Made by a program: the position numbers and the translations under genes. The notes beneath the pieces were generated by a model. The model made no database searches, had not been told where the DNA came from, and worked only from the letters and a program-made list of their open reading frames with translations. 64,000 nt of DNA from a virus (Duplodnaviria > Caudoviricetes), in the IMG/VR virus record IMGVR_UViG_3300034073_003276. One strand, given 5' to 3'. Every line of letters starts with the position of its first letter. Positions within the stretch are counted from its first letter, which is position 1. Positions 1 through 14,300 of this stretch are shown here, piece after piece.

Positions 1-865
1 CTTCTTTTTGTGGTAGTGGTTTTAGATAAGGAGTTTGACCTAAATCTTCTACCTTGAGATTAAGATAATAAGGAAGAGCAAGGGCATAAACCCAACAAGC
101 ATCTTTTGGAAACTTTGGTTTGTCCCAAACACAGACAGAGTTAAATTCATTGTAGTTAAAAAGTTTTACTAATTCTTTTCTAGTTGATGTCCATATAGGA
201 TTCATTCCAAGTTTCTTCAGATGCTTCATAAAACGAATATGGATAATTTCATCACCAGCACCACACTGACTATCAATAATAATCGTTCTACCTGGAGTTA
301 CTGTTCCATCCCACTTCTCATAGTTTGGATACTTTTTATTCTTATATGCCTCTACTTCTCCTGCTTTGAGAAAGTGCTGAAGTCCTGTATGAATATCGTC
401 TTTACGAAAGTAATGTCCAGATAGGTTATGATATGCCTTTCTTTCAATCTCTTCGGGTAGTCTTTTTTTAATTAGGTCAAATAGAAGTTTTTCTGATTTC
501 TCTTTTTGATTTAAGGCAGAATATGAAAAAGTTTCCTCAAGAAGAAGTTCAGAATCTTGAGGATTTTGTGATTTGATTTTTGAGATTTGAGTTATTGCTT
601 TTTCTGGATAGTTATTTTGGTTGTATGCGTTTATAAGGTTTTTTGCAGTAATGTAAATTTCTTCTTTTGACTTTGCTAACTTAAGTGCTTTCTCACCATA
701 AGTAATAGCATTTGAGAAATCTTTAATTTCAAAAAAAATCTTAGCAACATCATCGTGCTGCTCAAAAGTTTCTGCTCTTTTTCCAAATGCTTGAAGAACT
801 TCCGTTGTAAGTTCCTTTTCGTTGAAGGAGTACAGAGTTTTTGTAACCAATTCAAGAGGGTTCAT
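1..865 (-). CDS. TPR-repeat protein with C-terminal glycosyltransferase-like (GT9/heptosyltransferase-like) region; runs off the left edge
   Basis: Hand translation from ATG at 865 (MNPLELVTKTLYSF...KWDGTVTPGRTIIIDSQCGAGDEIIHIRFMKHL...) is open to base 1. It has a helical TPR-like N-terminus and the GxGDxI motif of TPR-GT fusions. Not in the ORF track because it is truncated. Confidence 0.65.
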   Translation of the reverse strand, partial: MNPLELVTKTLYSFNEKELTTEVLQAFGKRAETFEQHDDVAKIFFEIKDFSNAITYGEKALKLAKSKEEIYITAKNLINAYNQNNYPEKAITQISKIKSQNPQDSELLLEETFSYSALNQKEKSEKLLFDLIKKRLPEEIERKAYHNLSGHYFRKDDIHTGLQHFLKAGEVEAYKNKKYPNYEKWDGTVTPGRTIIIDSQCGAGDEIIHIRFMKHLKKLGMNPIWTSTRKELVKLFNYNEFNSVCVWDKPKFPKDACWVYALALPYYLNLKVEDLGQTPYLKPLPQKE

Positions 866-892
866 TGTGCAATGATAATGTGTTTAGAGTAT

Positions 893-2128
893 TTAGAATG
901 GTGTAAAGTCTACTGATTTAATTGCTGCTGCAAAATCTGATCCACCACTCACTTGTTTCCAGTCAGTTCCTCCAGCGAATGTGGTGATTGGAGTACTTCT
1001 GTCTCCTGTTGTTATTCCATTTCCAAGTCTTCCAGCCAATGCATGACCCCAAATCCATAAGGTTCCATCAGTTTTGATTGCTGTTGTAAGACTTCCACCA
1101 CTCACTTGTTTCCAGTTGGTTCCTCCAGCGAATGTAGTGATTGGAGTACTTATGTCTGTGACTCCTAACACTACTCCATTTCCAAGTATTCCTCTACCAC
1201 CATAACCCCAAGTCCATAAGGTTCCATCGGTCTTGATTGCTGCTGTATGCTGACTTCCAGCACTCACTTGTTTCCAGTTGGATCCTCCAGCGAATGTAGT
1301 GATTGGAGTACTTATGTTTGCTGTTATTACTGCGTTTCCAAGTTTTCCATCAGTTGTACCACCCCAAATCCATAAGGTTCCATCGGTCTTGATTGCTGCT
1401 GTATTACCTGATCCAGCACTCACTTGTTTCCAGTTGGTTCCTCCAGCAAATGTAGTGACTGGAGTACTTATGTAACCAAAAATCGTTGTTGTTACTCCAT
1501 TTCCAAGTTGTCCATTATATCCAGTACCCCAAAGCCATAAGGTTCCATCAGTTTTGATTGCTGCTGTATGAAATTCTCCACCACTCACTTGTTTCCAGTT
1601 GATTCCTCCAGCGAATGTAGTGACTGGAGTAATTGCGAATCCTGATACTACTCCATTTCCAACCCGACTTGCAGTACCCCAACTCCACAAGGTTCCATCG
1701 GTCTTGATTGCTGCTGTATGCTCACTTCCAGCACTCACTTGTTTCCAGTTGGATCCTCCAGCGAATGTGGTGACTGGAGTACTTATGTCTCCTATTGTTA
1801 TTCCATTTCCAAGCAGTGCACTTCCCTCACCCCAAGTCCATAAGGTTCCATCAGTTTTGATTGCTGCCATGTGGTCATTACCAGCACTCACTTGTTTCCA
1901 GTTGGTTCCTCCAGAGAATGTGGTGACTGGAGTACTTATGTATCCTGTTATTACTCCATTTCCAAGTTTTCCAGAAACTCCAAAACCCCAAGTCCATAAC
2001 TCTGGAGGAATACCTATCTTATCTGCAATTCCTGGGTAAACAGTAATTAAATAGTCTTTAGTGACTAACTTAGTCCCCAAATCAACACCATTACTATCTT
2101 TAAAGTTAGTTACTGGTTCTAAACTCAT
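893..2128 (-). CDS. RCC1/BLIP-II-like 7-bladed beta-propeller repeat protein
   Basis: Seven ~54-aa repeats of the form LWxWG...GxLGNG...[19 protein letters not shown]...TAAIKTDGT. Confidence 0.85.
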   Translation of the reverse strand: MSLEPVTNFKDSNGVDLGTKLVTKDYLITVYPGIADKIGIPPELWTWGFGVSGKLGNGVITGYISTPVTTFSGGTNWKQVSAGNDHMAAIKTDGTLWTWGEGSALLGNGITIGDISTPVTTFAGGSNWKQVSAGSEHTAAIKTDGTLWSWGTASRVGNGVVSGFAITPVTTFAGGINWKQVSGGEFHTAAIKTDGTLWLWGTGYNGQLGNGVTTTIFGYISTPVTTFAGGTNWKQVSAGSGNTAAIKTDGTLWIWGGTTDGKLGNAVITANISTPITTFAGGSNWKQVSAGSQHTAAIKTDGTLWTWGYGGRGILGNGVVLGVTDISTPITTFAGGTNWKQVSGGSLTTAIKTDGTLWIWGHALAGRLGNGITTGDRSTPITTFAGGTDWKQVSGGSDFAAAIKSVDFTPF

Positions 2129-2129
2129 T

Positions 2130-2918
2130 TCATTCCTCTATTGGTATTTGAAATTCTCCGAGTCCTTCAAGTTCTTCAGATACTTCACGAACAATAACAT
2201 CGTGAACCTCATCAATTGTTAAACAAGCATCAATCTCTTGAAGTTTTGCTAACTCCCAATCAAATGCTTCCTGAACTACTTTATCAACTTCACTTACAAT
2301 GTACTGAAGTTGTTCTGTAGTGATCTCCAACCAAGTATTCTCAAACTTAAAGTTATGAGGACCAGGAGATGCAGAAAGTTTACTTGCAAGCATCAATCTT
2401 TCTTCTCTTGATGTTGATACTTTTACTTCAGTATCATTTACTATAAGAGTAATGGTAGTATTTTCTTTTTCTCTTCTATAAGGAGCAACTTCTTGTTTAC
2501 GAAGTGCTTTGACTTCTTCTAAAGTTTTATTAGTGATTGTATAAGTAAATACAACTTTTGCAGGAACATCAATGTCTGCAAAAGTACCGTAACTATACAC
2601 CACTTCACCATCTTCACCGACTTTCATATTGACGCTATCATCATCGGTCACACTCACATCATTACTCAACTTTTCTGTAACAATTTCCCAAATAAAGTTT
2701 CCTATATTATGATACTTTGAATCATTTTCTGGAATCACTCTTTCGATTGGAAGAAGATGTGTAATCCCATCCGAAAAATGAATTGGAACATGTAAATAAC
2801 TTTTTGGTGAAATTCTATCTCTTAATTCCAAATCTTCTAATTCAGAATTAATCATACGTACATTGAATCTAATAGGTCCAAGAATGAGTTGATTGTTGTG
2901 TACTAATGCAAATTCCAT
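2130..2918 (-). CDS. Tail-fibre-associated protein, DUF4376-like C-terminus
   Basis: The C-terminal part (LEEVKALRKQEVAPYRREKE...QEAFDWELAKLQEIDAC) resembles DUF4376 fibre-assembly-type proteins, and the gene sits among fibre genes. Confidence 0.55.
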   Translation of the reverse strand: MEFALVHNNQLILGPIRFNVRMINSELEDLELRDRISPKSYLHVPIHFSDGITHLLPIERVIPENDSKYHNIGNFIWEIVTEKLSNDVSVTDDDSVNMKVGEDGEVVYSYGTFADIDVPAKVVFTYTITNKTLEEVKALRKQEVAPYRREKENTTITLIVNDTEVKVSTSREERLMLASKLSASPGPHNFKFENTWLEITTEQLQYIVSEVDKVVQEAFDWELAKLQEIDACLTIDEVHDVIVREVSEELEGLGEFQIPIEE

Positions 2919-2934
2919 ATCTTTTTTTTAATAT

Positions 2935-4698
2935 TTAGACATACTCAAGTTGAACAACGGGTCTATAGGTTCTAGTTGAAGTTGGATTATCAACATTAAT
3001 TGTATAAGTACCTGCACTATCCGACAGAGAAAACCATAAAGTTCCTGAACCTATTGGACTTGTGCCAGAAGAATTCCAGTTAGTTGGACATTGACCCCAG
3101 GCAAAAATTATTGCTAGATCATCTCCAGTCCAATTAAATGAGGTAGTAAGACTAAATGTTTTAGTTGTACCTGTAGTAAAACTTTCGGATGATGCTGATT
3201 TGACTATAGTGTATCCAGTATGCCCCGGAGTTCCTCCACCAAAACTACCATTTTTCATGCCAATAGCATAATTCGGTAATGGTTGATATAATGGTTGTTG
3301 GGTTACATCAAATCTCAATCCACTTATAGTCGCAGATGTAGTACCAAGAGCAGATTGTAGTTCTGCAGAGGTATAAACCCACATTATAATATGTCTCCTA
3401 AAATAAATATTACATATATTTGGACTAGTTGTTGTATTGTTTCCTGATGCAGTTATTATATCTCCAGACCATGCAGGATCAGGCGGCGGTGGTGGCGGTG
3501 CATCATTTCCACCTATGCCTGATTGAACTGCTCCTGTATTATCAGATCTAGTACTCACTTGTTTCCAGTCAGTTCCTCCAGCGAATGTGGTGACTGGAGT
3601 ACTTATGTTTCCTGATCCTACTGCGTTTCCAAGTAATGAGGAGCCTGCATAACCCCAAGACCATAAGGTTCCATCAGTCTTGATTGCTGCTATATTATTA
3701 GATCCAGCACTCACTTGTTTCCAGTCAGTTCCTCCAGCAAATGTAGTGACTGGAGTACTCATGTCTCCTGTTGCTGTTGCATTTCCAAGTTTTCCATTAG
3801 ATGCAGAACCCCAAGTCCACAAGGTTCCATCGGTCTTGATTGCTGCTGTATGATAACCTCCACAACTCACTTGTTTCCAGTCAGTTCCTCCAGCGAATGT
3901 GGTGACTGGAGTACTTTTGAATCCTGATGCTACTGCGTTTCCAAGTTTTCCATAAACTGTATTACCCCAAGTCCATAAGGTTCCATCGGTCTTGATTGCT
4001 GCTGCATGAGCACCTCCAGAACTTACTTGTTTCCAGTTGGATCCTCCAGCGAATGTAGTGATTGGAGTAGATAAACTAACAAAACTTGATGTAGCTCCAT
4101 TTCCAAGTTGTCCATTAGCTGCAGAACCCCAAGTCCATAAGGTTCCATCAGTCTTGATTGCTGCTATATTACTAGATCCAGCACTCACTTGTTTCCAGTC
4201 AGTTCCTCCAGCAAATGTAGTGACTGGAGTACTTATGTTTCCTGTTATTACTCCATTTCCAAGATTTCCAACACTTCCAGAACCCCAAGTCCACAAGGTT
4301 CCATCGGTCTTAATTGCTGATGTATTAGCAGTTGTACCACTCACTTGTTTCCAGTCAGTTCCTCCAGCGAATGTGGTGACTGGAGTACTTATGTTTCCTG
4401 TTGTTACTCCATTTCCAAGTTTTCCAGAAACTCCAATACCCCAAAGCCATAAGGTTCCATCGGTCTTGATTGCTGATGTGAAAGAACCTCCAATATTCAC
4501 TTGTTTCCAGTTGGATCCTCCAGCGGATGTGGTGACTGGAGTACTTATGGATCCTACTGTTACTCCATTTCCAAGTCTTCCATTACTTCCAGAACCCCAA
4601 GTCCATAATTGATCTCCAATATACTGATCAATTAACCAATATTCAGTTACAAAGTAATTTTCAATATCTCCTTCTGGCGATAAAAATTCATTAGGCAT
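2935..4698 (-). CDS. RCC1-like 7-bladed propeller, poly-Pro linker and unrelated C-terminal beta domain
   Basis: Seven repeats of the same family as 893..2128, then PPPPPP and ~170 aa of non-repeat sequence. Confidence 0.85.
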
Positions 4699-7600
4699 TT
4701 AACTTTCTCTCCATTTCTTCAATACGAACTTGTTGTTCTTTGATTGCTTCAATAAGTAATGCAACAATGTTTCCATAAGAAACTGATTTCAATCCTCTTG
4801 GCGTTTTAGATACAACTTCAGGTAAAACTTTTTCAATTTCTTGAGCAATCACACCAATTGATGGTTGATTATGTCCGTCAATCCAATCATATCTAACACC
4901 ATCAATTTTTTTAACCATATCTAAAGCATTTTCAATCTTTCTTACATTTGTTTTTTGAGTTTTATCAGAAAGTGATGTGAATACTGTCGCAAATAGAGTT
5001 CCACTTGAAGGATTATATTCAAGTTTGGTTGATGAAACATATAAGGTAGATACTGTGCCAGAAGTTGAATCTTCAAAAACAGGGTAACGAGTTGCATTTG
5101 TGCTTGTATCATCAGATATTGTTGCAACTGCAGAAGATCCTTGAGCACCTTGAGCACCCTGAGGTCCTTGTGGTCCTTGAGCACCTTGTGCACCCTGAGG
5201 TCCTTGAGGTCCTTGAATACCTTGTCTACCTTGAGTGCCTTGAGCACCTTGAGCACCTTGTGCACCCTGAGGTCCTTGTGGTCCTTGAGCACCTTGTGCA
5301 CCTTGTGCACCCTGAGGTCCTTGAGGTCCTTGAATACCTTGTCTACCTTGAGTGCCTTGAGCACCCTGAGCACCCTGAGCACCCTGAGCACCTTGAGGTC
5401 CTTGTGGTCCTTGAGCACCTTGTGCACCTTGTGCACCCTGAGGTCCTTGAGGTCCTTGAATACCTTGTCTACCTTGAGTGCCTTGAGCACCCTGAGCACC
5501 TTGAGGTCCTTGTGGTCCTTGAGCACCTTGTGCACCTTGAGCACCTTGAGGTCCTTGAGGTCCTTGAATACCTTGTCTACCTTGAGTGCCTTGAGCACCT
5601 TGAGCACCTTGAGCACCCTGAGGTCCTTGTGGTCCTTGAGCACCTTGAGCACCTTGAGGTCCTTGAGGTCCTTGAATACCTTGAATGCCTTGAGCACCTT
5701 GAGCACCTTGAGGTCCTTGTGGTCCTTGAGCACCTTGTGCACCTTGTGCACCCTGAGGTCCTTGAGGTCCTTGAATACCTTGAATGCCTTGAGCACCTTG
5801 AGCACCTTGAGCACCCTGAGCACCCTGAGCACCTTGAGGTCCTTGTGGTCCTTGAGCACCTTGTGCACCCTGAGGTCCTTGAGGTCCTTGAATACCTTGT
5901 CTACCTTGAGTGCCTTGAGCACCTTGAGCACCCTGAGCACCCTGAGCACCTTGAGGTCCTTGTGGTCCTTGAATACCTTGTCTACCTTGAGTGCCTTGAG
6001 CACCCTGAGCACCTTGAGGTCCTTGTGGTCCTTGAGCACCTTGAGCACCTTGTGCACCCTGAGGTCCTTGAGGTCCTTGAGGTCCTTGAATACCTTGTCT
6101 ACCTTGAGTGCCTTGAGCACCCTGAGCACCCTGAGCACCTTGAGGTCCTTGTGGTCCTTGAGCACCTTGTGCACCCTGAGGTCCTTGTGGTCCTTGAGCA
6201 CCTTGAGCACCTTGAGGTCCAGTTGGTCCTTGAATACCTTGTCTACCTTGAAGTGCTGCAGTAGAAATTGCTTCCCACTTTACCCCAGACCCAGTTGATA
6301 ATAAAACTGAAGTAGCAGATCCAACCTGATTGTTAACATCATATAATGCAGATCTTAATCTTATATTTCCATTGACATCTAATTTTTGTGTTGGATTTGT
6401 TTCACCAACACCGATATTTCCACCATAAGGTGCCAATTGAATTGTTCCACTTGCGTCTACATCAATAGAAGGAATACCTGAAACATCATTAACAGAGAAA
6501 ATAGATCCAGAAGTAAGATTATTTGTGATACTAAAAAGTTGTCCAGCAGAACCTTCAAACGAAAGTGTTCCTGTATTCAGAGTATCATAGTGAACAACGT
6601 CAATAACAGTTCCGATACCTAAAGTTCCAACTCCAGATACTGGAGTAATATAAGTTAAACTATCGGATCCAGTTGGATTGTTAGAAGCATCCTTATAAAC
6701 AACTTGATAGGCAGAACCTGCTACAGGTCCAGTTATACCTTGAATACCTTGTCTACCTTGAATACCTTGAATACCTTGTCTACCTTGAGTGCCTTGAGCA
6801 CCTTGAGCACCTTGAGCACCTTGAGCACCCTGAGGTCCTTGAGGTCCTTGAATACCTTGTCTACCTTGAGTGCCTTGAGCACCTTGAGCACCTTGAGGTC
6901 CTTGTGGTCCTTGAGCACCTTGTGCACCTTGTGCACCCTGAGGTCCTTGAGGTCCTTGAATACCTTGAATGCCTTGAGCACCTTGAGCACCCTGAGCACC
7001 CTGAGCACCTTGAGGTCCTTGTGGTCCTTGAGCACCTTGTGCACCCTGAGGTCCTTGAGGTCCTTGAATACCTTGTCTACCTTGAGTGCCTTGAGCACCT
7101 TGAGCACCCTGAGCACCCTGAGCACCTTGAGGTCCTTGTGGTCCTTGAGCACCTTGTGCACCCTGAGGTCCTTGAGGTCCTTGAATACCTTGAATGCCTT
7201 GAGCACCTTGAGCACCTTGTGCACCCTGAGGTCCTTGAGGTCCTTGAATACCTTGAATGCCTTGAGCACCTTGAGCACCTTGTGCACCTTGTGCACCCTG
7301 AGGTCCTTGAGGTCCTTGAATACCTTGTCTACCTTGAGTGCCTTGAGCACCTTGAGCACCCTGAGCACCTTGTGCACCTTGAGGTCCTTGAATACCTTGA
7401 ATGCCTTGAGCACCTTGAGCACCTTGTGCACCCTGAGGTCCTTGAGGTCCTTGAATACCTTGAATGCCTTGAGCACCTTGTGCACCTTGTGCACCTTGTG
7501 CACCCTGAGGTCCTTGAATACCTTGCCTACCTTGAGTGCCTTGAGCACCTTGTGCACCCTGAGGTCCTTGAGGTCCTTGAATACCTTGAATGCCTTGAGC

Positions 7601-10600
7601 ACCTTGAGCACCCTGAGCACCTTGAGGTCCTTGTGGTCCTTGAGCACCTTGAGCACCTTGTGCACCCTGAGGTCCTTGAGGTCCTTGAATACCTTGTCTA
7701 CCTTGAGTGCCTTGAGCACCTTGAGCACCCTGAGCACCCTGAGCACCTTGAGGTCCTTGAGGTCCTTGTGGTCCTTGAGCACCTTGTGCACCTTGAGGTC
7801 CTGTTGGTCCTTGAATACCTTGAATACCTTGAATACCTGCAGCAAAAGGATCGGTCCAAGATACCCCTACACCAGTTGAAATTAGAATTGATCCAGCAAC
7901 ACCAACTTGGTTATAAACATCATATAATGCAGATCTTAATCTTATATTTCCATTGACATCTAATTTTTGTGTTGGATTTGTTGTACCTATTCCAGTATTA
8001 CCACCATAAGGATTCAAAGAAATAGTTCTATCAGCATCAACATCAATAATTGGAATACCAGAAATTGGATTAACACTAAAGATAGAACCTGATGAAAGAT
8101 TATTTGTAATAGAAAATATTGTTCCTTGCGATGCTTCAAATGATAATGTTCCAGAATTTAAAGTATCATAATGAACTACATCAAAAATTGTACCAATACC
8201 TAAAGTTCCAACTCCAGATACTGGAGTAATATAAGTTAAACTATCGGATCCAGTTGGATTGTTAGAAGCATCCTTATAAACAACTTGGTAAGCAGAACCT
8301 GCTACTGGTCCTGTTATACCTTGAATACCTTGTCTACCTTGAGTGCCTTGAGCACCCTGAGCACCCTGAGGTCCTTGAATACCTTGAATTCCTTGAATTC
8401 CTTGTGCACCCTGAGCACCTTGTGCACCTTGTGCACCTTGTGCACCTTGTGCACCTTGAGGTCCTTGAATACCTTGAATTCCTTGTGCACCTTGAGCACC
8501 TTGTGCACCTTGTGCACCCTGAGGTCCTTGAGGTCCTTGAATACCTTGCCTACCTTGAGTGCCTTGAGCACCTTGAGCACCTTGTGCACCCTGAGGTCCT
8601 TGAGGTCCTTGAATACCTTGTGTACCTTGAGTGCCTTGAGCACCTTGTGCACCTTGTGCACCTTGAGGTCCTTGAATACCTTGAATTCCTTGAATTCCTT
8701 GTGCACCCTGAGCACCTTGTGCACCTTGTGCACCTTGTGCACCTTGTGCACCTTGAGGTCCTTGAATACCTTGAATTCCTTGTGCACCTTGAGCACCTTG
8801 TGCACCTTGTGCACCCTGAGGTCCTTGAGGTCCTTGAATACCTTGAATGCCTTGAGCACCTTGAGCACCTTGTGCACCTTGTGCACCCTGAGGTCCTTGA
8901 GGTCCTTGAATACCTTGTCTACCTTGAGTGCCTTGAGCACCTTGAGCACCCTGAGCACCTTGTGCACCTTGAGGTCCTTGAATACCTTGAATGCCTTGAG
9001 CACCTTGAGCACCTTGTGCACCCTGAGGTCCTTGAGGTCCTTGAATACCTTGTCTACCTTGAGTGCCTTGAGCACCTTGAGCACCCTGAGCACCTTGTGC
9101 ACCTTGAGGTCCTTGAATACCTTGAATACCTTGAATTCCTTGAATTCCTTGTGCACCTTGAGCACCTTGAGGTCCTTGAATACCTTGAATTCCTTGTGCA
9201 CCTTGAGCACCTTGAGGTCCTTGAGGTCCTTGAATTCCTTGAATTCCTTGAATTCCTTGTGCACCTTGAGCACCTTGAGGTCCTGTTGGTCCTTGAATAC
9301 CAGCAGCAAAAGGAGCAGTCCAAGAAACACCTACACCAGTAGAAACAAGAACGGATCCAGCAACACCAACTTGATTATAGAAATCCTTTAAGGTTGAATT
9401 TAATTCTACTTCACCATTAAAAGTAGAAATTCCAGAAACAACTAATGAATCAAAAGTTGGAGTGTCAGATACTCTAATAGTAGCAATAGCACCTCCAACA
9501 GTAGAAGTGGCAATAATATTATTTCCACGAAAATCTAAGTCAGTAACGCTACCAGCAGTTCCAACAACAGACCCTTCATCACGAACAACTATACCGTCCA
9601 GTGTTCCAGCACCTGCACCAGTAACTGGTTGCCATGACCAACCACCTACTCCATCAGCAACAGGAACATAGAGATTTGTACCAAAATCAACACCATCAGG
9701 AGATATTTGATTTACATCAAGTTTATCAAATGTTCCAATACCAGAAGCGTTAATATTTCTTACGACTGCTAAATCATTTTCAGTGAATTGAACTGAACCA
9801 GCAGCAAGTCTTGTTCCTGTCGGGAATTGAGTGCTTCCAATACCAACAGCATAATTAATTAACCAAGCATCAGTTCCAAGTCCAGCAAAAGAGCCTTCCT
9901 TGAACCACATAATTTTCTTGTATGTAGGAGGAAGAGTTTCAATACCAGCAACTGTTAATGTAATTAAAGGATTACCTTCAGTTGAAGCAACTGCAATACC
10001 ACCATGATTTGCGGTATTATCATTCGAAACATCATTACCAAATGCATCAGTTCTAAATCCAAGAATAATATCGGAGTCATAAACTGTTAATTCCGTAGCA
10101 AAAATTGTTGCCGATGTTCCACCAATTGTAACATTTCCAGTTACATTTAAGTTGCGGTTAACTTGTAGGTCTCTTGTAACTGTTAAATCTTCGGGAACAA
10201 CAAGATTTGTTGGAAGACTTAATGTTGGTGTGGAACCTTCTCCAGTGCCGCCAGTTACTGTAATCTGATTTGATGTCCCACTAATATCTTTAACATAATC
10301 ACCAAAAGTATCCGTGCCTAATCCAACACTATTTGGTTGAATAGTTGCTGCTAATGATACATTACCAGTACCATCAAAGGAAATTGGAGAAGCAACAACA
10401 TCTCCTGTGATTTCAAAAGTTCTTGCGTTTTCTAGTTTTGTTGCTGTTGTTGCAGTTCCTGTTAATGCTCCTACAAAAATTGTTGCTGTAGTGACACCAG
10501 AAACATAAAGTTGTGAAACAGTAACAATACCTAAAGTTGCAATCCCAGTATTGTTTATATTAGTATTACTTAAGAAATCAATAGTACCTGTAGTGGTATC

Positions 10601-11278
10601 TAAGGTCTCAATGCTACCAATACCACTATAAGAAACATTAGTGCCTGAGAGATAATCAATAGTACCTGTGGTTACATCAAGAGTCTCAATGGTTCCAATA
10701 CCAGAAGTATTAAGATTAGTATTACTTAAGAAGTCAATAGTACCAGTAGTGGTATCTAAAGTTTCTATAGTTCCAATACCACTATAAGAAACATTAGTGC
10801 CAGAGAGGTAATCAATAGTACCTGTAGTGGTATCTAAGGTTTCTATAGTTCCAATACCAGTTATATTAATATTTCTAGCATTAAGTTCGTCGAAAGTAAT
10901 ATCATCAGAAACATAAAGATCTCCACCGACATAAAGGTCACCAGAGAATGTACTAACTCCAACAAATGTAGATACACCGGAAACATAAAGTTGATTTGAT
11001 GTAACAATACCTAAAGTTGCAATACCTGAAGAATTGATATTATCTAAAGTAGAATCGGTACTATTAAGTGTAGTAATAGTACCTACGCCAGCATTAACTT
11101 GACCATTAAAAGTAGTTGCAGTAACTACACCAGTAAATTTTCCGTTCCCTCCAACATCAAGTTCTACTGTTGGTTGTGCCGAATTTATTCCTACTAAACC
11201 ACTAGAAGTAGCAGTAATTACTGTACCTCCAACTCCTACTTCTAACCCGCGCTTTACTCTAAAATTTTGATCAGCCAA
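4691..11278 (-). CDS. Collagen-like long tail fibre with C-terminal Peptidase_S74 intramolecular chaperone (TTG start)
   Basis: Three long Gly-X-Gln blocks. C-terminal SD...K.N...I.NAL...GV.Y.W...GVIAQE.EKVLPE.V...V.YG...ALLIEAIKE is the S74 signature. The N-terminus [14 protein letters not shown] is typical of cyanophage fibres. Confidence 0.85.
5141..6250 (-). repeat. Collagen block 3: tandem 9-nt Gly-X-Gln units
   Basis: Plus-strand units ttgagcacc / ttgaggtcc / ttgtggtcc / ttgaatacc / ttgtctacc / ttgagtgcc in tandem. Confidence 0.95.
6740..7840 (-). repeat. Collagen block 2: tandem 9-nt Gly-X-Gln units
   Basis: Same 9-nt units as block 3. Confidence 0.95.
8320..9300 (-). repeat. Collagen block 1: tandem 9-nt Gly-X-Gln units
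   Basis: Same units plus ttgaattcc (GGA ATT CAA). Confidence 0.95.
10494..10765. repeat. Direct repeat copy A (~272 nt), identical to 11988..12259
   Basis: Base-by-base visual comparison; offset 1494 nt, in frame. Confidence 0.85.
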
Positions 11279-11326
11279 GGTTCACTGTCCCCTCTGCTTA
11301 TTACTTTTACTTTTTTATATTTAGTC

Positions 11327-14300
11327 TTAAATCTTTGTGGCAATAAAATTAATTACATAATTAGTTGCTGATGCTGAAGACCCAGTTGCAAGAAGTACTA
11401 AATTTCCACCAGAAATATCAACATCGAATGATGCTACGGGGGTATTATTATAAACAGTCCCATATTCAGTGTGATAAGCAGTTATATTATCGTGAAGGGT
11501 AAGAATTTTTGTGCATTGGAAATTAGTTCCCTCTGTTGCTTGGATTGTGTATTCCACAAAACGATATGCTGAAGTAGAGAGTCCAGAATGAATACTTGTC
11601 TGAAGTATAGTTGATAAAGTTGAAGTTGCAGATCCAGTAACTGTCGTAGAGTTGATTTCAATATCACCAATAACTTGAAGTTTTGATGTTGGTTGAGTAG
11701 AACCAACACCAATATTAGTTCCAGTATCAGTAATAATACTATTAGTTAATTGACCATTACCATCATCCCATTTTACAATTCTATTATCAGTTAAATTATC
11801 ACCATTCTTAAGTGCCACTGAATCAGAACTAATGGTAATACCAGTTCCAACATTAACATCGAGAGTTACATCAGAAGTTAAAGTTCCACCACCACCTAAT
11901 CCAGATCCAGCAATCACATCCCGATTAAGATTTAATGCAGTTGTAGCAACTCCCACAAGATTTCCATAAAATGTTGTTGCTGTAGTAACACCAGAAACAT
12001 AAAGTTGTGAAACAGTAACAATACCTAAAGTTGCAATCCCAGTATTGTTTATATTAGTATTACTTAAGAAATCAATAGTACCTGTAGTGGTATCTAAGGT
12101 CTCAATGCTACCAATACCACTATAAGAAACATTAGTGCCTGAGAGATAATCAATAGTACCTGTGGTTACATCAAGAGTCTCAATGGTTCCAATACCAGAA
12201 GTATTAAGATTAGTATTACTTAAGAAGTCAATAGTACCAGTAGTGGTATCTAAAGTTTCAATAGTTCCAATACCACTATAAGAAACATTAGTGCCTGAGA
12301 GATAATCAATAGTACCTGTAGTGGTATCTAAGGTTTCTATAGTTCCAATACCACTATAAGAAACATTAGTGCCTGATAAGAAATCAATGGTTGCTGTAGC
12401 GGTATCTAAGGTTTCTATAGTACCTATTCCACTATAAGAAACATTAGTACCAGAAAGGTAATCAATAGTACCAGTAGTGGTATCTAAGGTCTCAATGGTT
12501 CCAATACCTGAAGTATTCAGATTGGTATTACTTAAATAATCAATAGTACCTGTAGTGGTATCTAAAGTTTCAATAGTTCCAATGCCACTTACATTAATAT
12601 TATTAGCACTAAGTTCATCAAAAACAATATCATCAGCAACATAAAGATCCCCACCAACATAAAGGTCACCAGAGAATGTACCAACTCCAACAAATGTAGA
12701 TACACCGGAAACATAAAGTTGTGAAGCAGTAACAATACCTAAAGTTGCAATCCCAGTATTGTTTAGATTGGTATTACTTAAGAAGTCAATAGTACCAGTA
12801 GTTACATCAAGAATCTCAATGGTTCCAATACCAGTTATATTAATATTATTGGCACTAATTTCATCAAAAACAACATCATCAGCAACATAAAGATCTCCAC
12901 GAACATAAAGGTCTCCATTAAAAGTACTAATTCCATTAAATGTAGAAAATCCAGTGACAAAAAGATTTTCATTCAATAAGAAATCAATAGTACCAGTAGT
13001 TACATCAAGAGTCTCAATGGTTCCAATACCAGTTATATTAATATTTCTAGCATTAAGTTCGTCGAAAGTAATATCATCAGCAACATAAAGATCTCCACCA
13101 ACATAAAGGTCACCAGAAAATGTACTAACTCCAACGAATGTAGAAACTCCAGAAACATAAAGTTGATTTGATGTAACAATACCTAAAGTTGCAATCCCAG
13201 TATTGTTTAGATTGGTATTACTTAAGAAGTCAATAGTACCAGTAGTTACATCAAGAATCTCAATGGTTCCAATACCAGTTATATTAATATTTCTAGCACT
13301 AATTTCATCAAAAACAACATCATCAGCAACATAAAGATCTCCACCAACATAAAGGTCTCCATTAAAAGTACTGATTCCATTAAATGTAGAAAATCCAGAA
13401 ACATAAAGTTGTGAAGCAGTAACAATACCTAAAGTTGCAATCCCAGTATTGTTTAAATTAGTATTACTTAAGAAATCAATAGTACCTGTAGTGGTATCTA
13501 AGGTCTCTATAGTTCCAATACCAGTTATATTAATATTTCTAGCACTAATTTCATCAAAAACAACATCATCAGCAACATAAAGATCTCCACGAACATAAAG
13601 GTCTCCATTAAAAGTACTGATTCCATTAAATGTAGAAAATCCAGTGACAAAAAGATTTTCATTCAATAAGAAATCAATAGTACCTGTAGTAGTATCTAAG
13701 GTCTCTATAGTTCCAATACCAGTTATATTAATATTTCTAGCACTAATTTCATCAAAAACAACATCATCAGCAACATAAAGATCTCCACCAACATAAAGGT
13801 CACCAGAGAATGTACTAACTCCAACGAATGTAGAAACTCCAGAAACATAAAGTTGTGAAGTGGTAACAATACCTAAAGTTGCAATTCCAGTATTGTTTAA
13901 ATTAGTATTACTTAAATAATCAATAGTACCAGTAGTTACATCAAGAGTCTCAATGGTTCCAATGCCACTTACATTAATATTATTAGCACTAATTTCATCA
14001 AAAACAACATCATCAGCAACATAAAGATCTCCACCAACATAAAGGTCACCAGAAAATGTACTAACTCCAACGAATGTAGAAACTCCAGAAACATAAAGTT
14101 GATTTGATGTAACAATACCTAAAGTTGCAATCCCAGTATTGTTTAGATTGGTATTACTTAAGAAGTCAATAGTACCAGTAGTGGTATCTAAGGTCTCAAT
14201 GGTTCCAATACCACTATAAGAAACATTAGTGCCAGAGAGGTAATCAATAGTACCAGTGGTGGTATCTAAGGTTTCAATGGTTCCAATACCACTATAAGAA

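Follow-up and report, generated by a model that had tools for sequence, protein, structure and literature searches.

Homogenised, loop-diversified RCC1 propellers beside the tail fibre of a freshwater cyanophage, likely variable host-binding heads

INTRODUCTION

In Podospora anserina, the HNWD WD40 repeats of NLR proteins encoded by het-d, het-e and het-r show "high internal conservation" (Paoletti, Saupe & Clave 2007, PMC1805685; Chevanne 2010, PMC2873952; Dyrka 2014, PMC4986451). In the gp38 adhesins of T2/T6-type phages, glycine-rich motifs flank hypervariable segments (Trojet et al. 2011, PMC3157838). Rak2-like jumbo phages carry arrays of RCC1-like paralogues annotated as "DNA condensation protein", among them phAPEC6 (11 copies), 121Q, PBECO4 and GAP32 (gp1), and mass spectrometry has identified several of these RCC1-like proteins in purified virions (PMC7247149, PMC5259590). 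In the literature on RCC1 with cyanophages or receptor-binding proteins, we found no description of a system such as the one reported here.

We analysed a 64,000-nucleotide stretch of viral DNA (IMG/VR record IMGVR_UViG_3300034073_003276; hereafter, the window) from a freshwater T4-like cyanophage of the Kyanoviridae type, in which RCC1-like propellers sit in the tail-fibre module. A preliminary description of positions 893 to 4,698 had proposed that RCC1-like blades in two genes are built from constant DNA blocks and hypervariable loops, and that the constant blocks anchor a shuffling of blades that yields an antibody/VLR-like repertoire of host-surface binders.

RESULTS

Genes, domains, and genomic context

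The window contains two RCC1 genes, both on the minus strand. Gene A (A-type; positions 893..2128), identified by ORF, Pfam, and AF2 model, encodes a 411-aa protein in which a conserved N-terminal segment of 45 aa precedes a single seven-bladed propeller. Gene B (B-type; positions 2935-4698) encodes a 587-aa protein that starts with the conserved N-terminus "MPN.F.SPEGD.ENYF" and continues with seven blades; this propeller part (aa 1-395; positions 3514..4698, minus strand), identified by ORF and Pfam, is followed by a poly-proline linker and a C-terminal jelly-roll domain (aa 396-587 plus the stop codon; positions 2935..3513, minus strand). Against the RCC1-like domain PF25390 (Pfam cut-off 150), the gene A protein scored 211 bits and the gene B protein 194 bits, and the score for PF00415 was ~140 bits against a cut-off of 21.7. 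PHROG matches to the RCC1-like families of Rak2-like phages were distant only (E 1e-25 to 1e-33). Neither Ran exchange nor chromatin binding is expected in a cyanobacterial phage, and we treat "regulator of chromosome condensation" as a family label only.

A third RCC1 gene of the same phage (398 aa; L053:15505-16701) lies 4.3 kb past the left edge of the window, and the three genes together hold 21 blades per phage. This third gene has 2OG-oxygenase, sulfotransferase and glycosyltransferase genes as neighbours, and the RCC1 genes are located at the border of a large glycosyl-, methyl- and sulfotransferase island.

Between genes A and B is a DUF4376 gene (positions 2130..2918, minus strand; 262 aa), which scored 28 bits against PF14301 (cut-off 25) and matched PHROG 10508, "tail fiber protein" (E 1e-6), a tail-fibre-associated family. 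On its other side, gene B adjoins a collagen-like fibre gene (positions 4691..11278, minus strand; 2195 aa) with matches to PHROG tail-fibre families (E 1e-56). In the fibre protein, about 55 aa form a conserved tip, and the C-terminal part (about 4694-4966) is an S74-type chaperone; Peptidase_S74 was called on the homologous piece of a related contig, L054. The start codon of gene B and the end of the fibre gene overlap by 8 nt, and this overlap is kept in at least 15 different phage contigs; in phage S-SRM01, the gene upstream of the B-type gene is annotated as the long tail fibre distal subunit. The T4 late-promoter motif TATAAATA was absent from positions 1-12,500, and we therefore claim no separate promoter.

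The family is large, with more than 120 close relatives listed and, in the contigs examined (from lake and estuary metagenomes), 144 distinct gene products. In related phages, each gene type encodes proteins of about 400, 780, 1160, 1550, 1735 or 2559 aa, corresponding to 1-7 propellers per gene (7 to about 49 blades). B-type orthologues in related loci lack the jelly-roll domain.

Blades and constant DNA blocks

Genes A and B each encode six full repeat units of 50-55 aa and a seventh blade that is closed by an N-terminal "LWTWG..." piece, so the two genes together encode 14 blades. The near-identical DNA blocks reported earlier for both genes were recovered: a 45-nt block occurs 14 times (≤3 mismatches) and a 30-nt block 12 times (≤2 mismatches), with zero matches to either block in shuffled sequences. 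Tandem Repeats Finder identified periods of 153-156 nt and 471-474 nt with 81-87% matches. The loop strings that had been quoted (FGVSGK, EGSAL, TASR, TGYNGQ, GTTDGK, YGGRGI and HALAGR) are all present, in gene A, and each blade has a third variable segment beyond those described earlier, an "xGxxH" hairpin between two constant blocks. The constant blocks use GTC, GTG, ATC, ACC and AAC throughout, codons that, in the rest of the window, make up 8-20% of those used for their amino acid; because the blocks are built uniformly from rare codons, codon bias was ruled out as the cause of their identity.

Concerted evolution and exchange between blades

Within the constant blocks, codons for the same amino acid differed at a proportion of 0.14 within the genome (0.12 within the same gene and 0.15 between genes), and at 0.24-0.39 in comparisons with the blades of eight related phages; pS of the neighbouring gene against the same eight phages was 0.33-0.59. 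At silent sites, then, blades are closer to one another within the genome than to their syntenic orthologues, which is concerted evolution, and blades in different genes are about as alike as blades inside one gene. Synteny and type-specific N-termini of the three RCC1 genes are conserved across phages, including S-SRM01 (where the three products are gp335, gp337 and gp344), and syntenic A-type orthologues occur in >10 phage contigs. This conservation indicates that the three genes are old orthologues; the likeness of blades within the genome must therefore stem from homogenisation.

Several blades are mosaics. Blades B3 (positions 4069..4230, minus strand) and B6 (positions 3601-3756) are 95-100% identical in nucleotide sequence across the first constant block, first variable segment, and second constant block (c1, v1 and c2), whereas their second and third variable segments (v2 and v3) are 40-44% identical (Fisher p = 1.7e-5). 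Similarly, blades A2 (positions 1631..1780, minus strand) and A5 (positions 1148-1309) are 94-96% identical in the first half and 22% identical in v2 (Fisher p = 3.8e-5). Half-blade likeness also crosses genes, pairing B0 with C4 and A0 with B1. Four-gamete incompatibility increased from 0.42 at ≤10 nt to 0.77 at >100 nt. Mantel tests found no correlation between segment distance matrices, a result that is compatible with recombination, albeit with segments too short for it to serve as evidence.

A natural variant, L054, is the only close variant (97% nt identity). Its DUF4376 gene is 99.8% identical in nucleotide sequence to that of the window, which sets the level of background divergence, and its gene B is 97.2% identical. 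Blade order and most loops are kept in L054, and the differences are point changes together with one or two short tracts. In constant block c1 of blade B2 (positions 4354..4386, minus strand), L054 carries a short gene-conversion tract, with five changes within 27 nt that all correspond to the haplotype of blades B4 and A5. Overall, 30 of the 37 new states in L054 were already present in other blades, compared with 21 expected (p = 6e-5), an overlap that could partly reflect constraint shared with paralogous blades instead of conversion. Five contigs encode the gene A product, and the DNA of the one compared (L053, 12.1 kb) matches the window exactly. At the protein level, P0121 is a gene A variant with two substitutions. 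A 92% metagenome match, L091, was left out; its similarity is limited to the last blade plus the C-terminal domain, beyond which the sequence is unrelated, and the contig is probably chimeric.

The suggestion that constant blocks act as anchors for recombination or gene conversion holds up: they behave as tracts of intragenomic homogenisation and exchange, based on concerted evolution across three genes, mosaic half-blades, distance-dependent four-gamete incompatibility, and the L054 conversion tract.

Loop variation and selection

Between blades, dN/dS was ~2.8 in loop columns, a value inflated by the choice of these columns partly for their variability, and 0.3 in constant columns; the corresponding dS values were 0.25 and 0.17. 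The comparison with L054, a strain-pair test that uses a single variant contig and is independent of the choice of loop columns, identified 17 nonsynonymous and 0 synonymous changes in loop columns (p = 0.006).

Among 473 distinct blades from the 144 gene products, there were 430 distinct v1, 423 distinct v2, and 380 distinct v3 segments. Identical 6-aa loops were shared among these blades at about the chance rate, and loop sharing was therefore not used as evidence of cassette exchange between phages.

Predicted structure and the loop face

AF2 predicted a seven-bladed beta-propeller for gene A (pTM 0.75), and Foldseek aligned this model to HERC2 RLD2, UVR8, and RCC1 (E 1e-20, TM 0.74-0.82). 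BLIP-II was also among the fold matches, with TM 0.48-0.49 by model and 0.70-0.72 by chain. Based on strand order in the model, v1 forms the A-B loop (a hairpin) and v2 and v3 form the C-D loop on the same face, and v1 aligns with the W/R of the GWRHT motif of UVR8, an interface position. AF2 confidence was low in the C-D loops (pLDDT below 50), and the placement of variable residues on one face is deduced from the AF2 strand topology together with the UVR8 alignment. Taken together, these results support loops that are hypervariable, positively selected, and, as judged from topology, confined to one face of the propeller.

The jelly-roll domain of gene B was predicted with high confidence (AF2 pLDDT 97). 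Its fold matches were weak (TM ~0.5) and included phage capsid, baseplate and tail-tip chains as well as carbohydrate-binding modules. The domain is a mobile module that is found elsewhere beside Ig, PKD, Laminin_G_3 and Calx-beta domains. A complex prediction with three copies of the fibre tip and the gene B propeller scored 0.00 and weighs neither way.

DISCUSSION

We consider it reasonably likely, on balance, that this tail-fibre module carries homogenised, loop-diversified RCC1 propellers that serve as variable host-binding heads. The paralogous seven-bladed propellers would evolve as a repeat family with "high internal conservation", in which gene conversion and unequal recombination among blades, within and between the three genes, may keep the scaffold DNA uniform while the same exchange moves half-blade segments around. 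Positive selection would push apart three loop segments per blade, all on one propeller face: one is the A-B hairpin, and the C-D loop supplies the other two. The expected outcome, over evolutionary time and not within one infection, would be 21 different loop sets per phage and loops that are almost unique in every related phage. The propellers would be produced alongside the fibre, exposed on the virion, and directed at host-surface structures that change. We infer this display and binding role from gene context and domain company, specifically the overlap between the B-type and fibre genes, the DUF4376 gene between genes A and B, the domains that accompany the jelly-roll module, and the virion proteins of jumbo phages.

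Alternatively, the propellers may be non-structural, either as variable inhibitors or adaptors of the BLIP-II kind in the infected cell or periplasm (with host defence or host enzymes as targets) or as servants of the glycan-modification island (e.g., as lectin-like scaffolds or substrates). Protein binding is a generic property of RCC1 and BLIP-II propellers, BLIP-II is among the fold matches, the third RCC1 gene lies amid genes for 2OG-oxygenase, sulfotransferase and glycosyltransferase, and arms races with defence proteins likewise give positive selection. However, every relative examined couples translation of the B-type gene to that of the fibre gene, the jelly-roll module of gene B is elsewhere joined to the extracellular domains Ig, PKD and LamG, and the RCC1-like proteins of jumbo phages were detected in virions (PMC7247149, PMC5259590). 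A non-structural role is therefore unlikely in our judgement, although by some distance the least unlikely of the rivals. As for an antibody/VLR-like repertoire, which would be programmed through frequent blade shuffling in the population or during replication and would give many combinations per lysate, long near-identical anchors do flank every loop and conversion between blades does occur, as in the L054 tract. This part of the preliminary description was not supported, and we regard it as very improbable: near the genes there was no sign of a dedicated recombinase, a reverse transcriptase (DGR-type) signature, or a silent cassette array, L053 is identical to the window, and the 97% variant keeps its blade order, an argument from identity and order that is not decisive because assemblies collapse rare variants.

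Two further explanations concern how the loops became variable. Bacteria commonly carry propellers that were amplified recently and have near-identical blades, and amplification of one blade followed by relaxed constraint, with neutral loop drift and neither conversion nor adaptive diversification, is consistent with the low dS of the blades in constant and loop columns alike (0.17 and 0.25). Neutrality would give a ratio of 1, whereas loop dN is nearly threefold dS and the strain pair shows 17:0; moreover, each of the three gene types has its own conserved N-terminus and synteny and is older than the divergence of the phages, and mosaic half-blades and a conversion tract are directly seen, all of which makes recent amplification highly improbable. 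The Bordetella phage Mtd system, in which a DGR makes codons hypervariable in the binding scaffold of a phage tail fibre, resembles the present module in having hypervariable codons in such a scaffold, but rewriting of these loops from a template repeat has next to no probability. Blade mismatches had no adenine bias (template bases T 2541, A 2453, C 2050 and G 2316), no blade pair exceeded 48% at one base, strain-level substitutions occurred in all directions, loop lengths vary, and no non-coding template repeat was found. The rejection is based on this flat mutation spectrum, with part of the window ORFs scanned for a reverse transcriptase.

If the propellers are host-binding heads, as we favour, they would be a phage receptor-binding scaffold so far undescribed, whose specificity residues could be read from sequence as three short loops per blade on one face. 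Such heads might account in part for host-range turnover among freshwater picocyanobacterial phages and would offer a natural, modular binder scaffold, and the locus would be a clean prokaryotic-virus case of concerted evolution combined with diversifying selection. More tentatively, it is possible that freshwater cyanomyophages maintain the scaffold DNA as portable homology for the exchange of loop cassettes between blades, genes and co-infecting phages, with the array of propellers on the conserved fibre tip being expandable; if so, the recognition repertoire would work like that of fungal NLR repeats or of gp38 hypervariable segments. S-SRM01, a cultured relative, makes the system testable.

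The seven-bladed fold is common to the phage propellers, eukaryotic UVR8, HERC2 RLD2 and RCC1 (PDB 4d9s, 7q40 and 1i2m), and BLIP-II (1jtd), at 18-31% identity, and the variable hairpin of the phage blades aligns where UVR8 has the GWRHT motif of its interaction face. Whereas eukaryotic RCC1-like blades are old, divergent, and without concerted evolution, the phage blades are homogenised, and neither the Ran exchange-factor role of RCC1 nor the UV-sensing role of UVR8 is expected in a phage. Genomes of Rak2-like phages likewise encode several RCC1/BLIP-II-type propellers, each about 40 kDa; however, these arrays occur in enterobacterial jumbo phages and away from the fibre gene, whereas those described here are beside it, and for the jumbo-phage arrays there is no published account of internal blade conservation or loop selection.

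The closest analogues are the T-even gp38 adhesins and the fungal HNWD repeats. Like that of gp38, the B-type gene lies directly downstream of the distal tail-fibre gene; in both systems conserved motifs bracket hypervariable loops, and recombination between conserved motifs is thought to swap specificity. No homology to gp38 was found by sequence or fold (Pfam and PHROGs matched the RCC1 genes to RCC1 families only); gp38 is a small single domain that attaches to the fibre tip, whereas here there are 7-49 blades per gene in three genes and attachment is putative. With the HNWD repeats, the phage propellers have in common blades that are near-identical in DNA, concerted evolution within and between several genes, variable repeat number, positive diversifying selection at a few sites of the interaction face, and a recognition repertoire that arises over evolutionary time, with binding presumed in the phage case. 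The differences are that HNWD repeats have the WD40 fold and not the RCC1 fold, that the phage genes have three variable segments per blade as well as length variation, that RIP is absent, and that copy number changes by whole seven-blade propellers. The phage RCC1 genes also have no effector domain, and a Pfam scan of them identified RCC1-type families only, with no NACHT domain; without a NACHT/NB-ARC core, they are HNWD-like in their working but not members of that family.

Gene Neighbourhood

The window is a portion of a T4-like cyanophage genome, with psbA present and matches to Synechococcus phages; S-SRM01, a freshwater Synechococcus phage (Kyanoviridae), is the closest named relative for this region, and a search of the phage collection gave no high-identity match to the window's phage. 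The genes of the region are tightly packed on the minus strand: a collagen-like fibre gene with an S74-type chaperone end (4691-11278; 2195 aa), RCC1 gene B (2935-4698; 587 aa), overlapping the fibre stop with its first 8 nt (4691-4698), a DUF4376 gene (2130-2918), RCC1 gene A (893-2128; 411 aa), and a TPR-protein gene. A metagenome contig of 111 kb (L053), identical to the window over 12.1 kb, carries a C-type RCC1 gene (L053:15505-16701; 398 aa) ~4.3 kb beyond the window's left edge (position 1), alongside 2OG-oxygenase, DUF8361, sulfotransferase, and glycosyltransferase genes. This third gene brings the phage's total to 21 blades, and its C-type blades have been homogenised with the blades of the other two genes. 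Five contigs encode the gene A product; one of them was compared at the DNA level and is identical to the window. Another metagenome contig (L091; 1621 nt), probably an assembly chimera, covers the gene B end and the beginning of the DUF4376 gene before running into unrelated sequence that codes for a MoxR-like ATPase-type protein.

Blade Repeats and Concerted Evolution

Genes A and B both score above the Pfam RCC1-like cut-off, and each comprises six complete repeats and a seventh blade that the N-terminal strand closes. The two near-identical DNA blocks noted in the preliminary description are real, with 14 and 12 occurrences and none in shuffled sequence. Its two variable segments, one following WG and the other LGN, also stand; a third, an 'xGxxH' hairpin between constant blocks, had been missed. 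When 12 blades were aligned by codon, many conserved residues had the same codon in every blade. These invariant codons include GTC, GTG, ATC, ACC, and AAC, which account for just 8-20% of their codon families across 35 other ORFs of the window. This uniform use of rare codons rules out codon bias or protein constraint as the cause of the likeness, which therefore reflects shared descent or copying.

In related viral and metagenome contigs, the conserved order is fibre, B-type RCC1, DUF4376, A-type RCC1, and TPR, with C-type RCC1 and sulfotransferase further on, and every RCC1 type is marked by a conserved N-terminus of its own; the three genes are therefore old orthologues. When constant-block codons for the same amino acid are compared, a fraction of 0.14 differ among this phage's blades (0.12 within genes, 0.15 between genes), whereas 0.24-0.39 differ from the blades of eight other phages. 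This diagonal pattern, in which blades of the same genome are most alike, is found in seven of the nine genomes compared. That blades are closer to their genome-mates than to their orthologues shows homogenisation by gene conversion or unequal crossing-over, which acts across genes <1 kb to >10 kb apart.

Between phages, positional orthologues have a pS of 0.28-0.48 at invariant residues, somewhat below the 0.33-0.59 of the neighbouring gene. Across the nine phages compared, some constant-block codons (e.g., window 1055-1084), among them the rare ATC in 'AIK' as well as GGA GGA, AAA CAA, and GCA, are shared by nearly all blades, and others are genome-specific. Gene flow between phages may account for the shared codons and the lower scaffold pS, as may constraint acting at the DNA level.

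Each gene type occurs in relatives at ~400, 780, 1160, 1550, 1735, or 2559 aa, corresponding to one to ~seven propellers. Lengths of the poly-propeller versions (L025:5170-12849; L017:6001-9513; L031:6016-9513; L028:1009-6204) rise in ~380-aa steps to the maximum of 2559 aa. Such a size ladder is what unequal recombination between repeats should produce when only whole propellers persist.

Traces of Exchange Between Blades

In blade pairs B3/B6 and A2/A5, the first constant block, hairpin, and second constant block are 94-100% identical in nucleotide sequence, whereas the following loops are merely 22-57% identical (Fisher p ~2-4e-5). Between genes, it is the second blade half that B0/C4 and A0/B1 have in common (later loops v2+v3, 92-96% nt identity; constant block c3, 100%). 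Within the 165-nt unit, biallelic informative site pairs failed the four-gamete test in 42% of cases at ≤10 nt and in 77% beyond 100 nt, and a PHI-like test on the same sites gave p = 0.04.

A 3.5-kb variant contig from another sample (L054) matches the window with 99.8% identity in the DUF4376 gene but just 97.2% in gene B. Five changes within 27 nt of its blade B2 jointly rebuild the haplotype of blades B4 and A5, and the same three-base change is also present in its blade B3. Overall, 30 of the 37 changed bases in the variant's blades pre-exist at the same column of another blade (21 expected; p = 6e-5); shared constraint, rather than conversion, could be behind part of this excess. The preliminary description proposed that the constant blocks anchor recombination or gene conversion that shuffles blades, giving an antibody/VLR-like repertoire of host-surface binders; nothing indicates programmed shuffling, as the compared gene A contig is identical to the window and this 97% variant retains the blade order and most loops. 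A diversity-generating retroelement is very unlikely, given loop length variation and no adenine bias in mismatches.

The collagen part of the fibre (L054:1-880 versus window 4691-5600) is ~90% identical, in many alignment registers, in these two near-identical strains; fibre repeats too turn over fast.

Propeller Structure and Selection on Loops

AF2 predicted a seven-bladed RCC1 propeller (pTM 0.75; mean pLDDT 70), with TM 0.74-0.82 to HERC2 RLD2, UVR8, and RCC1. In the model, the blade strands are WKQVSA (A), HTAAIK (B), LWxWG (C), and TPV (D); the hairpin is therefore the A-B connection, and the other two variable segments form the long C-D connection. These connections share a face because the blade is an up-and-down four-strand unit, and the constant turns TDGT (B-C) and FAGGTN (D-A) are on the opposite face. 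From strand order rather than coordinates, and with the C-D loops modelled at low confidence, we infer on good grounds that all variable segments would lie on one face. HMMER aligned the variable hairpin to the UVR8 GWRHT motif, whose Trp and Arg sit at the dimer and partner interface in UVR8 structures; by residue count, UVR8 D96 and D107 (named in PDB titles) correspond to positions in the other two segments.

The between-blade comparison gave dS 0.17 and dN 0.05 for constant columns and dS 0.25 and dN 0.70 for loop columns; the loop ratio of 2.8 is inflated because columns were partly chosen by variability. An independent test on the same loop columns in the L054/window strain pair found 17 non-synonymous and 0 synonymous changes, whereas under neutrality roughly one change in four would be synonymous (p = 0.006). 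Six syntenic A-type orthologues have a near-invariant scaffold, and all loops of all blades differ among them. The three segments have 430, 423, and 380 distinct sequences in 473 distinct blades from 144 gene products.

Fibre Link and Possible Function

The 8-nt overlap between B-type start and fibre stop recurs in at least 15 different phages. Fibre shafts in these phages range from 181 to 2195 aa, with a conserved ~55-aa tip before the 'SLSD' S74 cleavage motif (overlap and tip: window 4691-4698 and 4694-5140; L002, L004, L009, L017, L019, L025, L028, L057-L077); this tip is a plausible candidate docking site for the conserved B-type N-terminus. In S-SRM01, the cluster comes after baseplate-wedge genes and an annotated long tail fibre distal subunit gene, the same genomic position as the adhesin gene gp38 in T2-type phages.

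Gene B alone among the RCC1 genes continues through a proline linker into a jelly-roll (window 2938-3470; aa 410-587; AF2 pLDDT 97), for which no Pfam family was found. This is a mobile C-terminal module: its 164 representative homologues stand alone or at protein ends, including those of proteins up to 2600 aa with Ig, PKD, Laminin_G_3, and Calx-beta domains, and it is absent from the B-type orthologues of the related loci. Its weak fold matches are to phage capsid, baseplate, and tail-tip chains and to carbohydrate-binding modules. Mass spectrometry has detected RCC1-like proteins in the virions of Rak2-like jumbo phages (PMC7247149, PMC5259590). A non-structural or glycan-island-linked role is possible; the fibre overlap, the position in S-SRM01, the jelly-roll, and the jumbo-phage virion proteins together suggest a fibre-linked function for the propellers.

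Comparison With Known Systems

Our literature search returned no description of such a system for cyanophage RCC1 propellers. The phage precedent is gp38, in which hypervariable segments are bracketed by conserved motifs (PMC3157838). Although fold and protein architecture differ, the mechanism described here for the RCC1 genes agrees point for point with that of the fungal HNWD WD40 repeats of Podospora NLR proteins, in which repeats likewise evolve in concert both inside a gene and across genes, repeat number varies, and the interaction face is under positive selection (PMC1805685).
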